Shown: piece after piece, positions 19,486 through 52,120 of the stretch
Position numbering within the stretch: the stretch's first letter is position 1
Layout of the letters: every line of letters begins with the position of its first letter
Source: Escherichia coli
GTDB lineage: Bacteria > Pseudomonadota > Gammaproteobacteria > Enterobacterales > Enterobacteriaceae
DNA length: 64,000 nt
NCBI RefSeq assembly: GCF_003334405.1
Contig: NZ_QOWM01000005.1
Strand: one strand, 5' to 3'
Translations under genes and position numbers: made by a program
The notes under the pieces: generated by a model
Told to the model about the DNA's origin: nothing
Databases searched by the model: none
Seen by the model: the letters and a program-made list of their open reading frames with translations, nothing else

Positions 19486-20922
19486 ATGTCAAACAACATT
19501 CGTATCGAAGAAGATCTGTTGGGTACCAGGGAAGTTCCAGCTGATGCCTACTATGGTGTTCACACTCTGAGAGCGATTGAAAACTTCTATATCAGCAACA
19601 ACAAAATCAGTGATATTCCTGAATTTGTTCGCGGTATGGTAATGGTTAAAAAAGCCGCAGCTATGGCAAACAAAGAGCTGCAAACCATTCCTAAAAGTGT
19701 AGCGAATGCCATCATTGCCGCATGTGATGAAGTCCTGAACAACGGAAAATGCATGGATCAGTTCCCGGTAGACGTCTACCAGGGCGGCGCAGGTACTTCC
19801 GTAAACATGAACACCAACGAAGTGCTGGCCAATATCGGTCTGGAACTGATGGGTCACCAAAAAGGTGAATATCAGTACCTGAACCCGAACGACCATGTTA
19901 ACAAATGTCAGTCCACTAACGACGCCTACCCGACCGGTTTCCGTATCGCAGTTTACTCTTCCCTGATTAAGCTGGTAGATGCGATTAACCAACTGCGTGA
20001 AGGCTTTGAACGTAAAGCTGTCGAATTCCAGGACATCCTGAAAATGGGTCGTACCCAGCTGCAGGACGCAGTACCGATGACCCTCGGTCAGGAATTCCGC
20101 GCTTTCAGCATCCTGCTGAAAGAAGAAGTGAAAAACATCCAACGTACCGCTGAACTGCTGCTGGAAGTTAACCTTGGTGCAACAGCAATCGGTACTGGTC
20201 TGAACACGCCGAAAGAGTACTCTCCGCTGGCAGTGAAAAAACTGGCTGAAGTTACTGGCTTCCCATGCGTACCGGCTGAAGACCTGATCGAAGCGACCTC
20301 TGACTGCGGCGCTTATGTTATGGTTCACGGCGCGCTGAAACGCCTGGCTGTGAAGATGTCCAAAATCTGTAACGACCTGCGCTTGCTCTCTTCAGGCCCA
20401 CGTGCCGGCCTGAACGAGATCAACCTGCCGGAACTGCAGGCGGGCTCTTCCATCATGCCAGCTAAAGTAAACCCGGTTGTTCCGGAAGTGGTTAACCAGG
20501 TATGCTTCAAAGTCATCGGTAACGACACCACTGTTACCATGGCAGCAGAAGCAGGTCAGCTGCAGTTGAACGTTATGGAGCCGGTCATTGGCCAGGCCAT
20601 GTTCGAATCCGTTCACATTCTGACCAACGCTTGCTACAACCTGCTGGAAAAATGCATTAACGGCATCACTGCTAACAAAGAAGTGTGCGAAGGTTACGTT
20701 TACAACTCTATCGGTATCGTTACTTACCTGAACCCGTTCATCGGTCACCACAACGGTGACATCGTGGGTAAAATCTGTGCCGAAACCGGTAAGAGTGTAC
20801 GTGAAGTCGTTCTGGAACGCGGTCTGTTGACTGAAGCGGAACTTGACGATATTTTCTCCGTACAGAATCTGATGCACCCGGCTTACAAAGCAAAACGCTA
20901 TACTGATGAAAGCGAACAGTAA
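19486..20922 (+). CDS. aspA: Aspartate ammonia-lyase AspA (478 aa)
   Basis: ORF 19441..20922; start at [13 protein letters not shown] (ATG 19486); fumarase/aspartase signature [10 protein letters not shown]. Confidence 0.97.
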
Positions 20923-20947
20923 TCGTACAGGGTAGTACAAATAAAAA

Positions 20948-20975
20948 AGGCACGTCAGATGACGTGCCTTTTTTC
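20948..20975 (+). terminator. aspA terminator (aggcacgtc/gacgtgcct stem then TTTTTT)
   Basis: Perfect 9-bp stem plus T-run. Confidence 0.8.
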
Positions 20976-21039
20976 TTGTGAGCAGTAACTTAAAAATAAC
21001 AATCTAATATCAACTTGTTAAAAAACAAGGAAGGCTAAT

Positions 21040-49704: not shown

Positions 49705-49884
49705 GCCTGTTATTTATCCTGTAAAAAAATATGTACATGAGAAATTACTATAAAAATTTGTACTATTAGTAAAACTCGTTATTTTTATGCATGTTTATAT
49801 TCATCATACAATTATATAACCATTTCCCGGTATCGCTTTGCTTTAGCGAGAACTGGTCTTTTATTCGCACTCAGGAGTACATGT

Positions 49885-50646
49885 ATGAGGATTTGCAGCG
49901 ACCAACCTTGTATTGTTTTATTGACTGAAAAAGATGTCTGGATAAGGGTGAATGGGAAAGAACCTATTAGCCTTAAAGCTAACCATATGGCGTTATTAAA
50001 TTGTGAAAATAATATTATCGACGTCTCCTCTCTTAACAACACTTTGGTTGCTCATATTAGTCACGACATCATCAAAGATTACCTCCGGTTTCTGAATAAA
50101 GATCTCTCGCAAATACCAGTATGGCAACGTAGCGCTACGCCCATACTCACCCTGCCATGCCTGACGCCAGACGTCTTTCGCGTTGCCGCGCAACACAGCA
50201 TGATGCCCGCAGAAACTGAGTCAGAAAAGGAACGAACACGCGCATTATTATTCACGGTGCTATCCCGTTTTCTCGACAGTAAAAAATTCGTTTCATTAAT
50301 GATGTATATGTTACGTAATTGTGTAAGTGACAGCGTTTATCAAATTATTGAAAGCGATATTCACAAAGACTGGAATCTTAGTATGGTAGCCAGTTGTTTA
50401 TGTCTTAGCCCAAGTCTGTTAAAGAAAAAGTTGAAAAGCGAAAACACCAGTTATAGCCAAATAATCACCACCTGCCGCATGCGTTATGCCGTAAATGAAT
50501 TAATGATGGACGGTAAAAATATCTCTCAGGTATCACAGTCCTGCGGCTACAACAGTACGTCGTACTTTATTTCTGTCTTTAAAGACTTCTACGGTATGAC
50601 GCCGCTGCATTATGTTAGTCAGCACAGAGAACGCACTGTCGCCTGA
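49885..50646 (+). CDS. adiY: AraC-family regulator AdiY (253 aa)
   Basis: ORF track; AT-rich gene; C-terminal AraC HTH. Confidence 0.93.
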   Translation: MRICSDQPCIVLLTEKDVWIRVNGKEPISLKANHMALLNCENNIIDVSSLNNTLVAHISHDIIKDYLRFLNKDLSQIPVWQRSATPILTLPCLTPDVFRVAAQHSMMPAETESEKERTRALLFTVLSRFLDSKKFVSLMMYMLRNCVSDSVYQIIESDIHKDWNLSMVASCLCLSPSLLKKKLKSENTSYSQIITTCRMRYAVNELMMDGKNISQVSQSCGYNSTSYFISVFKDFYGMTPLHYVSQHRERTVA

Positions 50647-50782
50647 TTTTTAACCTTAACGAAGAGCTATATTAATAACGGCATCAGCGATAACCCGGTC
50701 GATAATAATTCAACTATCGAATGCAGGCGTATGATATGACGTAATTTATTGTCACGAAGCTCGCCTTCGCAGGAGTTTAATT

Positions 50783-52120
50783 ATGTCTTCGGATGCTGAT
50801 GCTCACAAAGTGGGCTTAATCCCCGTCACCCTGATGGTGTCGGGGAATATTATGGGGTCAGGTGTTTTTCTGTTACCTGCAAACCTGGCCTCTACTGGCG
50901 GGATTGCCATTTATGGATGGTTGGTGACGATTATCGGTGCACTGGGGCTCTCGATGGTATACGCCAAAATGTCGTTCCTCGACCCAAGTCCTGGTGGTTC
51001 TTACGCTTACGCCCGCCGCTGCTTTGGCCCGTTTCTCGGTTATCAAACCAACGTCCTCTACTGGCTGGCCTGCTGGATCGGCAATATCGCCATGGTGGTC
51101 ATTGGCGTAGGATATTTAAGTTACTTCTTCCCGATTCTGAAAGATCCATTGGTATTAACCATCACCTGCGTCGTGGTGCTGTGGATCTTCGTCCTGCTGA
51201 ACATTGTCGGTCCGAAAATGATCACCCGTGTGCAGGCAGTTGCCACCGTGCTGGCGCTGATCCCCATCGTCGGGATTGCCGTATTTGGCTGGTTCTGGTT
51301 CCGTGGTGAAACCTATATGGCGGCATGGAACGTCAGCGGCCTGGGCACCTTCGGTGCAATTCAAAGTACCCTTAACGTTACGCTGTGGTCGTTCATCGGT
51401 GTGGAAAGTGCCTCCGTTGCCGCAGGTGTGGTGAAAAACCCGAAACGCAATGTCCCTATCGCCACCATTGGTGGGGTATTGATTGCCGCCGTTTGCTATG
51501 TACTTTCTACCACCGCGATTATGGGGATGATCCCTAATGCCGCACTGCGCGTTTCTGCTTCGCCATTCGGTGATGCCGCACGGATGGCGTTGGGTGACAC
51601 CGCCGGGGCCATTGTTTCCTTCTGCGCAGCTGCGGGTTGCTTAGGTTCACTGGGCGGCTGGACGTTGCTGGCGGGTCAAACGGCGAAAGCCGCTGCCGAT
51701 GACGGACTGTTCCCACCGATTTTTGCCCGTGTAAATAAAGCGGGTACGCCAGTGGCGGGGCTGATTATCGTCGGTATTTTGATGACCATCTTCCAGCTCA
51801 GCAGCATTTCACCAAACGCGACCAAAGAGTTCGGTCTGGTTTCTTCCGTCTCGGTCATCTTTACACTGGTGCCATATCTTTACACCTGTGCGGCGTTACT
51901 GCTGCTCGGACACGGTCACTTTGGTAAAGCACGCCCGGCATATCTGGCAGTTACTACCATTGCCTTCCTCTACTGCATCTGGGCCGTGGTGGGGTCCGGA
52001 GCGAAAGAGGTTATGTGGTCATTTGTCACCCTGATGGTCATCACCGCCATGTATGCGCTGAATTACAACCGGCTACATAAAAACCCGTATCCCTTAGATG
52101 CACCAATAAGCAAAGATTAA
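50783..52120 (+). CDS. adiC: Arginine:agmatine antiporter AdiC (445 aa)
   Basis: ORF track; APC family, paralogue of CadB. Confidence 0.96.

Follow-up and report, generated by a model that had tools for sequence, protein, structure and literature searches.

The paralogous acid-stress and anaerobic-respiration genes crowded into about 33 kb of this Escherichia coli DNA most probably form a historical composite of well-known operons rather than a duplicated segment or a functional super-unit. The cad genes adjoin the dcu and adi genes only in the E. coli clade and the paralogous copies are ancient, therefore the cluster is read here as a composite and not as a duplicated or co-inherited unit. 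The analysis has added little new biology and its main value lies in this negative outcome, as the apparent clustering of paralogues is not to be taken as local duplication or as a higher-order functional unit.

The whole stretch analysed (the window, 64,000 nucleotides) corresponds to the 93-94 min region of the E. coli chromosome, is 100% identical to E. coli chromosomes and carries the gene order of K-12 MG1655 b4112-b4155 in reverse complement. From adiC (b4115) to frdA (b4154) at 4,335,694-4,382,318, K-12 has identical content and order, including pheU, yjdQ, ghoST and yjdIJ; the window differs in its reverse orientation, and its 100% identity is with other E. coli strains and not necessarily with K-12. 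The original prediction regarded everything here as known, and this is correct, as the organisation is that of K-12 and all genes, operons and paralogies are textbook E. coli. Its gene identifications (cad, adi, aspA-dcuA, dcuSR-dcuB-fumB and frd) were also borne out. On translation of the window ORFs each named gene is intact at its coordinates, and nine of ten key proteins score above the curated NCBIfam cut-offs for their named families. AdiY gave no NCBIfam match at the strict E-value limit applied and is assigned solely from the RefSeq annotation of an identical sequence.

Apart from the variable slot as a whole and the mel interval, the parts located below are on the plus strand. The fumarate reductase operon frdABCD lies at 5495-8806 (intact ORFs identical to annotated E. 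coli genes; K-12 b4151-b4154). The aspA-dcuA operon (19486-22341) consists of aspA for aspartase at 19486-20922 (TIGR00839, 915 bits, cut-off 681) and an intact dcuA for a C4-dicarboxylate transporter at 21040-22341; the PRK09412 Dcu profile scored 702 bits on this DcuA (cut-off 369), and the TIGR00770 Dcu profile gave 697 and 674 bits for the two Dcu transporters of the window. The genes cutA-dsbD-yjdC(dicD) at 22457-25080 form the conserved left flank of a slot next to the tRNA-Phe gene pheU (25187-25262, ARAGORN and Rfam). This variable slot, from pheU to yjdJ (25263-35455), contains a yjdQ-type tyrosine recombinase/integrase remnant at 25460-25619 (K-12 pseudogene yjdQ, b4654), the 8.8-kb cadC-cadB-cadA-dtpC-lysU block at 25813-34613 (lysine decarboxylase acid resistance, peptide permease and inducible LysRS) and ghoST. 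Within the block cadC (25879-27417; PRK10153, 753 bits) and cadB (27782-29116; PRK10435, 920 bits) are above their cut-offs, as is cadA (29196-31343; PRK15400, 1628 bits, cut-off 1056). On the other side are intact ORFs for the two-component system genes dcuS (36151-37782) and dcuR (37779-38498), then the dcuB-fumB operon with an intact dcuB for a C4-dicarboxylate transporter (39069-40409) and fumB for a class I fumarase (40487-42133; PRK15391, above cut-off). Between fumB and adiA lie yjdF and melB-melA/melR (42256-47094), followed by adiA for arginine decarboxylase (47293-49560; PRK15029, 1705 bits, cut-off 1167), adiY (49885-50646, by RefSeq annotation) and adiC for the antiporter (50783-52120; PRK10644, 892 bits). 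Housekeeping genes unrelated to these systems (gro, efp, ampC) are scattered through the cluster, as are the mel genes.

CadA and AdiA are both large PLP-dependent decarboxylases of the Orn/Lys/Arg (OKR_DC_1) family, and CadB and AdiC belong to the basic amino acid/polyamine antiporter family, each being encoded beside its decarboxylase. Each module has its own activator, the ToxR-like CadC and the AraC-like AdiY, and an acid response is predicted for both. CadC switches on cad at low pH when lysine is present and AdiY activates adi; dcuB-fumB and frdABCD are activated by DcuSR and FNR. The cad, adi and dcu/frd genes operate as separate systems, each with its own regulation, and the functional units are pairings at the operon level, namely of transporter with enzyme (aspA-dcuA, dcuB-fumB) and of regulator with target (dcuSR beside dcuB). 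In both of the former a gene for a Dcu transporter and one for a fumarate-forming enzyme are adjacent on the same strand, and co-transcription of each pair is known from the literature.

Synteny, proposed in the original prediction as a check and here compared across Enterobacterales, supported only a part of the cluster. Among 80 species representatives, Escherichia, Salmonella and Citrobacter share a conserved dcuSR-dcuB-fumB-…-adiAYC, which in the latter two has no cad beside it; cadA-dtpC-lysU-ghoTS-yjdJI is found upstream of dcuS in Escherichia only (DcuB-anchored comparison), and cad stands beside dcu/adi only in the E. coli clade. The conserved supra-operonic neighbourhood is thus confined to dcuSR-dcuB-fumB-…-adi and to the Escherichia/Salmonella/Citrobacter clade. 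The order dcuS-dcuR-dcuB-fumB is kept in Escherichia, Salmonella, Citrobacter, Trabulsiella and Intestinirhabdus, and in most Enterobacterales (Klebsiella, Raoultella, Proteus, Serratia, Pectobacterium and others) dcuB is solitary. The melB gene is deleted in three non-coli Escherichia representatives, and no mel genes turned up at the locus of E. albertii or at those of several Citrobacter. These comparisons show an older linkage in Escherichia, Salmonella and Citrobacter, which runs frd…aspA-dcuA-cutA-dsbD-yjdC-pheU, slot, dcuSR-dcuB-fumB-(mel)-adiAYC-eptA-basRS; for Salmonella the linkage of dcuA with dcuB is taken from a published gene table (PMC1360685).

The positions of cad across Enterobacterales are far more varied. 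The cadCBA-dtpC-lysU block occupies at least seven different chromosomal contexts, and these show it as a relocating unit of 8.8 kb. Its borders, one about 66 bp before the cadC start codon and the other at the lysU stop, recur in E. fergusonii, Raoultella and K. oxytoca, although the surrounding genes differ from one to the next; the E. albertii locus begins inside cadC and only the lysU border is visible there. In a comparison of five species homology ended some 66-95 bp upstream of cadC and at the lysU stop, and no common flanking sequence, inverted repeats or mobility genes were found at the borders. The context is ycdT|cad|ghrA in E. fergusonii, cad|yicG-ligB in E. albertii and hmp|cad|glnB in Salmonella, where cadCBA-dtpC is present without lysU; Raoultella and K. 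oxytoca carry the block in still other contexts. In five genera (Atlantibacter, Edwardsiella, Obesumbacterium, Plesiomonas and Shimwellia) the context is dnaE-accA-…-tilS, and accA-tilS is the locus of ldcC in E. coli. The accA-(yaeR)-tilS loci resemble E. coli cad in having orthologous CadC, CadB and CadA in the same order, with CadA 81-87% identical, and differ from it in the absence of lysU and, in Plesiomonas and Atlantibacter, also of dtpC. This widespread site is probably the ancestral one, at which E. coli keeps only the duplicate ldcC. Wherever the non-E. coli contexts were tested, no adi, dcu, frd, aspA or fumB homologue was present within +-8-10 kb. Among the genomes compared, none but E. 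coli and the clades nearest to it carry cad in the pheU-yjdJ slot. No account of this relocation history was found in the literature searched, in which cadBA and pheU never occur in one paper, and pheU and cadC only as incidental mentions. A modest by-product of the study is a clearer history of cad, in which cadCBA-dtpC(-lysU) has moved repeatedly between Enterobacterales sites and the E. coli site is the pheU island slot. This history is relevant to the movement of operon-sized blocks that carry no mobility genes, and to the loss of cad, which has occurred repeatedly in Shigella and enteroinvasive E. coli.

The slot itself has some of the features of a tRNA island, namely a position 3' of a tRNA gene, atypical GC content and variable occupancy among relatives. 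It starts directly at the 3' end of pheU, and the GC content from there to dcuS is 45.3% (46.3% in the cad block) as compared to 51.0% and 50.7% in the flanks. The integrase remnant, which is P4-like, is an approximately 160-bp frameshifted partial fragment in RefSeq records and is interrupted by stop codons in three-frame translation, with no intact integrase in the slot. A second copy of the 23-nt pheU 3' end, which would mark a distal island border, was not found in the window with up to 3 mismatches. Of 5,426 complete E. coli genomes, about 32% lack a contiguous yjdC-pheU-cadC junction, and in six of eight sampled non-contiguous rows the match starts at query position 736 (window 25240); the last 23 nt of pheU (25240-25262) are thus where other E. 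coli genomes break. In one E. coli example the cluster is split by an island exceeding 20 kb at the 3' end of pheU, and the span of the 33-kb cluster therefore varies among E. coli genomes. In Escherichia strain E69 homology begins only at 35456, with a fimbrial operon upstream, and Citrobacter has a DMSO-reductase-like operon upstream of dcuS, with yjdI and yjdJ absent. S. Typhimurium has a 15-kb island, STM4305, between dcuS and pheU, again with yjdI/yjdJ absent (Wilson & Nickerson 2006, PMC1360685), and its pheU is flanked by yjdC-dsbD-cutA (STM4322-4324). That island is placed like the E. coli slot, with melB-fumB-dcuB-dcuR-dcuS on one side and pheU-yjdC-dsbD-cutA-dcuA on the other, whereas its cargo is dmsABC-like genes, rtsAB and phoN in place of cadCBA-dtpC-lysU-ghoST (PMC1360685). 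No tRNA-Phe was found in the 10-kb flanks upstream of dcuS in 17 related loci. We infer that the cad block reached the pheU-yjdJ slot as cargo of, or beside, a tRNA-Phe-targeting island of which only the yjdQ remnant would survive. The proximity of cad to adi and to dcu would then be a by-product of its arrival at pheU.

The density of paralogues, called striking in the original prediction, was compared with 17 evenly spaced, pre-set 50-kb windows of MG1655. Under strict counting, with pairs required to reach blastp E<=1e-30, to align over at least 70% of each protein and to have midpoints separated by 3-33 kb, the controls had no pair in 15 windows and one pair in two (mean 0.118), whereas the target had three pairs and exceeded all 17. 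Strong dispersed pairs are thus rare (control mean 0.12 against 3) and the clustering is nominally unusual, with a Poisson P(>=3) of 2.5e-4 per window, or about 0.02 over some 93 such windows of the genome, at thresholds that were picked after the target pairs were known. As cadBA/adiAC represents a single module-level event, the target contains two independent events; P(>=2) is then 0.006 for a single window, and a genome would be expected to hold about 0.6 windows of this kind. At lax thresholds (E<=1e-10, coverage at least 60%) the target count of three was equalled by one control, the control mean rose to 0.82 and the signal was gone. The enrichment is nominal and threshold-dependent; with the age of the copies, the closer relation of CadA to LdcC, the differing gene order and regulators of the modules and the restriction of the cad-dcu/adi proximity to the E. 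coli clade, the claim of a striking clustering is only partly supported.

This strict enrichment would suit a selected supra-operonic domain, in which genes for anaerobiosis and low pH are kept together and co-expression is aided by nucleoid proteins, supercoiling or a local concentration of regulators. We consider such a domain unlikely, and a form of it very unlikely in which 19-52 kb with frd is a selected anaerobic/acid-stress domain and the capture of a roaming cad near adi/dcu was favoured through the shared environment and better co-induction in the gut rather than being a neutral insertion accident. In favour of a domain, FNR activates frdABCD, aspA-dcuA and dcuB-fumB alike and all three depend on HU (PMC2634741), dcuSR adjoins its target dcuB, and dcuSR-dcuB-fumB-adi is kept in three genera. 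In Edaphovirga dcuSR-dcuB is located beside frdDCBA, an adjacency of independent origin, and therefore fumarate-respiration genes can cluster independently. However, among five non-ancestral cad positions (outside accA-tilS) only that of E. coli is near adi/dcu, and dcuB stands alone in most of the order. About one third of E. coli genomes do without a contiguous junction at pheU, at least one of them tolerating within the cluster the island that exceeds 20 kb, the mel genes and the unrelated gro, efp and ampC are interspersed, and the enrichment is lost at lax thresholds and amounts to two independent events.

Pure coincidence without an island is also quite unlikely; here ordinary rearrangement or recombination would have brought cad to its site, with the integrase remnant left over from an unrelated, long-deleted island. 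It differs from the composite explanation solely in the mechanism of cad arrival. In other species cad is found at non-tRNA sites, therefore the remnant may be unrelated to its arrival; the block lacks mobility genes and att-like repeats, and many unrelated islands strike pheU. Against this, pheU and cadC have the remnant directly between them, AT content is higher throughout the pheU-to-ghoS segment than in its flanks, and the position matches the Salmonella island slot (PMC1360685).

The paralogue pairs named in the original prediction were confirmed by full-length blastp, with 36% identity for CadA/AdiA (E 5e-162), 38% for CadB/AdiC (E 2e-107) and 36% for DcuA/DcuB (E 3e-78). The CadA of V. 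cholerae retains 75% identity to that of E. coli, and for this reason the CadA/AdiA split predates that of Vibrio and Escherichia; the identities show all three pairs to be ancient, and the cad and adi modules diverged well before Enterobacterales. Local or segmental duplication, in which an ancestral decarboxylase-antiporter module and a dcu transporter were copied in place and stayed close, is extremely improbable: the similar divergence of both cad/adi components and the congruent decarboxylase and antiporter trees would fit an ancient module-level co-duplication, but cad lies elsewhere in all taxa examined outside the coli clade (at accA-tilS in five genera), neither the regulators (CadC and AdiY) nor the partner enzymes (AspA and FumB) gave a blastp match with each other at E<=1e-3, gene order and regulator families differ between the modules, and the true recent duplicate of cadA and closest paralogue of CadA is ldcC (LdcC, 69% identity), which is located about 494 kb away. 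A recent local duplication as the origin of the cluster was rejected on the 36-38% identities and the location of cad elsewhere in relatives. The lysine and arginine decarboxylase/antiporter modules show themselves, as judged by protein identity, to be mutual closest relatives at the module level, with the speF-potE ornithine module branching outside. In the identity matrix AdiA is 32-34% identical to SpeC/SpeF, which share 67% with each other, and PotE is at 32-33% in the antiporter comparison as against 38% for CadB-AdiC. This matrix agrees with the published LAOdc phylogeny, in the parts consulted, where CadA (LdcI) and AdiA fall in a lysine/arginine group whose members are nearer to one another than any is to the ornithine decarboxylase branch (Carriel et al. 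2018, PMC6257575). Those passages derive ldcC from ldcI and say nothing about how close cad and adi lie on the chromosome (PMC6257575).

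The cluster (19486-52120) is a historical composite of already known genes and organisation. Each named gene was found to translate to an intact ORF at its coordinates, and nine of the ten key proteins scored higher than the curated NCBIfam cut-off set for the family in question, with AdiY giving no NCBIfam match at the strict limit applied; the original prediction is therefore correct as an observation, and its reading as known genes forming an organisational curiosity is essentially right. In the RefSeq annotations of K-12 MG1655 and of an identical strain, the genes are ordered yjeM, epmA, frdABCD (5495-8806), ampC, blc, sugE, ecnBA, efp, epmB, yjeJ, yjeI, groLS, yjeH, fxsA, aspA-dcuA, cutA-dsbD-yjdC, pheU (25187-25262), an integrase remnant (yjdQ), cadC-cadBA-dtpC-lysU, ghoTS, yjdJI, dcuSR, dcuB-fumB, yjdF, melBA/melR, adiA-adiY-adiC and eptA-basRS. 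The window is E. coli chromosome: each of the 5,426 complete genomes of this species contains a match to a 20-kb query from the cluster, with 100% identity in several.

In an all-against-all blastp of the window proteins, the predicted paralogy was recovered for CadA/AdiA (36% identity, E 5e-162), CadB/AdiC (38%, E 2e-107) and DcuA/DcuB (36%, E 3e-78). Relationships absent from the predicted list are EpmA/LysU (31%), the tandem EcnA/EcnB (55%), DcuR/BasR, and YjeH and YjeM as weak relatives of CadB/AdiC. CadC with AdiY and AspA with FumB gave no blastp match at E<=1e-3, and the modules share no more than a decarboxylase plus an antiporter (cad/adi) and a transporter (dcu). Four APC-superfamily amino-acid transporters lie within 50 kb, namely YjeM (2472-3974), YjeH (17401-18657), CadB (27782-29116) and AdiC (50783-52120), YjeH being 26-27% identical to the last two.

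The phylogeny suggested for CadA/AdiA and CadB/AdiC was addressed by pairwise identity with paralogues encoded at other K-12 loci. CadA shares 69% identity with LdcC, whose gene lies about 494 kb off, but just 36% with AdiA; SpeC and SpeF share 67% with one another and 31-34% with the other decarboxylases, and PotE is 32-33% identical to each of CadB and AdiC, which share 38%. The tree of the decarboxylases matches that of the antiporters, the Lys modules grouping with the Arg modules and the Orn module falling outside, and the copies are ancient. A published phylogeny is in agreement and has ldcC arising from ldcI/cadA within Enterobacteriaceae (PMC6257575). The cad/adi split is far older than Enterobacterales, because V. 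cholerae CadA retains 75% identity to its E. coli counterpart, and a split of this age rules out recent local duplication as the source of the proximity.

The synteny check was run with DcuB as query on one genome per species with 10-kb flanks, giving 80 loci which were mapped with the window proteins. Among these, cadA-dtpC-lysU-ghoTS-yjdJI upstream of dcuS was found only in Escherichia (a representative labelled E. coli, Escherichia sp. E1V33 and E. whittamii), and cad next to dcu is not an Enterobacteriaceae-wide cluster. Salmonella and many Citrobacter species keep dcuSR-dcuB-fumB-yjdF-(melBAR)-adiAYC-eptA-basR without cad, and dcuB has no such neighbours in Klebsiella, Raoultella, Proteus, Serratia, Pectobacterium, Dickeya, Brenneria and others. 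Upstream of dcuS, C. amalonaticus carries a DMSO-reductase-like operon and S. diarizonae a repeat adhesin; in Escherichia strain E69 a chaperone-usher fimbrial operon precedes yjdJ-yjdI, and homology to the window starts exactly at 35456. For S. Typhimurium a published gene table gives the order melB-fumB-dcuB-dcuR-dcuS, a 15-kb 'island STM4305', then pheU-yjdC-dsbD-cutA-dcuA, the island being inserted at pheU with dmsABC-like, rtsAB and phoN cargo (PMC1360685). This gene table and the E. coli order together indicate that the dcuA...dcuB linkage across the pheU-associated slot (25263-35455, between pheU and yjdJ) is common to Salmonella and E. coli, and the filling of the slot is lineage-specific. 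In about nine Citrobacter assemblies the locus stops immediately upstream of dcuS, 3.3-3.7 kb before dcuB, at a contig end in at least seven, which points to a repeated element bordering the slot. Elsewhere among these loci, dcuS-dcuR-dcuB of Edaphovirga cremea directly adjoins frdDCBA, an independent and different fumarate-respiration clustering; three non-K-12-like Escherichia representatives show a clean deletion of melB (window 42880-44547), with melA directly after yjdF, and at the E. albertii locus the interval from yjdF to adiA yielded no mel gene.

The cad block (cadC-cadB-cadA-dtpC-lysU, 25813-34613) was located in other genomes by inspecting contigs with CadC and CadA homologues. It lies between pgaABCD-ycdT and ghrA-ycdX-ycdY in E. 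fergusonii, adjoins yicG-ligB in E. albertii and allantoin-cluster genes in Raoultella, has a different context in K. oxytoca (cysS and folD several kb upstream), and in Salmonella is found without lysU between glyA-hmp and glnB-glrR-...-purL. No adi, dcu, frd, aspA or fumB homologue was found within 10 kb of cad in any of the six contexts checked. With E. fergusonii, Raoultella and K. oxytoca, E. coli shares a stretch of DNA that starts about 66-95 bp before the cadC start and ends at the lysU stop codon, and the E. albertii contig shows the lysU border alone; these five share no common flanks. Such tight shared borders without common flanks argue that the cad block is an 8.8-kb relocating unit; it carries neither mobility genes nor repeats and occupies at least seven chromosomal contexts.

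Atlantibacter, Edwardsiella, Obesumbacterium, Plesiomonas and Shimwellia, five genera drawn from several Enterobacterales lineages, have the order dnaE-accA-(yaeR)-[cadCBA(-dtpC)]-tilS, whereas E. coli has accA-ldcC-yaeR-tilS (K-12 207000-214000), with ldcC instead of cadCBA. Atlantibacter holds both ldcC and cadCBA at this site, with only yaeR and a small ORF between them. The accA-tilS site is the most widespread cad position and probably the ancestral one, and the E. coli position is derived; the pattern looks as though cadA had been duplicated in place to give ldcC and the inducible operon had later left the site. In the E. fergusonii block (locus 10001-18757), CadB and CadA are 99% identical to those of E. 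coli but CadC only 80%, reflecting either much faster evolution or replacement by recombination. E. coli CP028768.1 (locus 10001-11575) carries a cadC-like gene with 84% identity to CadC; it is an orphan without adjacent cadBA, and its neighbours in an island rich in IS66 are autotransporter and invasin-like genes.

In the window, cadC starts 617 bp past pheU, and between them lies yjdQ, a frameshifted tyrosine recombinase gene fragment of about 160 bp (a pseudogene in K-12). GC content is 45.3% from pheU to dcuS, with flanks of 51.0% and 50.7%. The yjdC-pheU-cadC junction is contiguous in 3,667 of 5,426 genomes; in six of eight sampled non-contiguous matches the cadC side starts exactly at 25240, the first of the last 23 nt of pheU. 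The pheU gene is an active integration site, one E. coli example having there an island of >20 kb that carries Ag43 and toxin-antitoxin genes. A distal copy of the pheU end was looked for in the 64-kb window and not found. The cad block is inferred to have arrived with or beside a tRNA-Phe-targeting island that later decayed. There are only two tRNA-Phe genes in E. coli, each adjoining a same-family decarboxylase locus: pheV is 1.2 kb from speC (K-12 3,107,020-3,110,441), and pheU is 0.6 kb from cadC and 3.9 kb from cadA (25187-25879). This may be a coincidence or a consequence of tRNA-Phe-targeted insertion; if tRNA-Phe was the target, insertion at either site would have put cadA near a paralogous decarboxylase, an illustration that 'striking' adjacencies of this kind can come about easily.

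Paralogue density was compared between the K-12 equivalent of the cluster and 17 MG1655 windows of 50 kb (starts 100,001 + k x 250,000), counting ORF pairs that reached blastp E<=1e-30, with both proteins covered to at least 70% and 3-33 kb between their midpoints. The controls held no pair in 15 windows and one pair in two (mean 0.118), and the target held three, at strict thresholds chosen after the target pairs had been seen. The Poisson P(>=3) is 2.5e-4 per window, or about 0.02 over some 93 windows. Because the cadBA/adiAC pairs are one module-level event, the target represents two events, for which P(>=2) is 0.006 per window and about 0.6 windows are expected per genome. Strong-paralogue density is nominally unusual, at about a once-per-genome expectation. 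The clustering described as striking does exceed all controls in the strict count, but with laxer thresholds (E<=1e-10, 60% coverage) controls reach three and the target is unremarkable; it is less remarkable than it first appears.

CadC activates cadBA and AdiY activates adiA/adiC, and in both systems protons are consumed by decarboxylation and the product is exchanged for substrate. In aspA-dcuA and dcuB-fumB, a C4-dicarboxylate transporter is paired with a fumarate-making enzyme, and dcuSR adjoins its target dcuB. The functional units are the operons, and no evidence of a cluster-level function was found for the whole 33-kb cluster. Co-localisation and co-transcription of aspA-dcuA and of dcuB-fumB are already in the literature, and both are listed together with frdABCD as FNR-activated (PMC2634741).

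A lysine theme was also observed, as epmA, epmB and efp (4193-5170, 11548-13184) lie <30 kb from lysU and the lysine decarboxylase system (25879-34613), epmA being a LysRS paralogue and epmB a lysine 2,3-aminomutase. A guanidine-II riboswitch upstream of sugE/gdx (10956-11002, minus strand) and the sRNA STnc630 between basS and proP (55602-55767, minus strand) scored above the Rfam gathering score. Between yjdM and yjdN, four tandem copies of the REP-derived naRNA4 element, a nucleoid-associated RNA, are present at 100-bp spacing (61433-61809, plus strand; Rfam RF02564, 95-111 bits).
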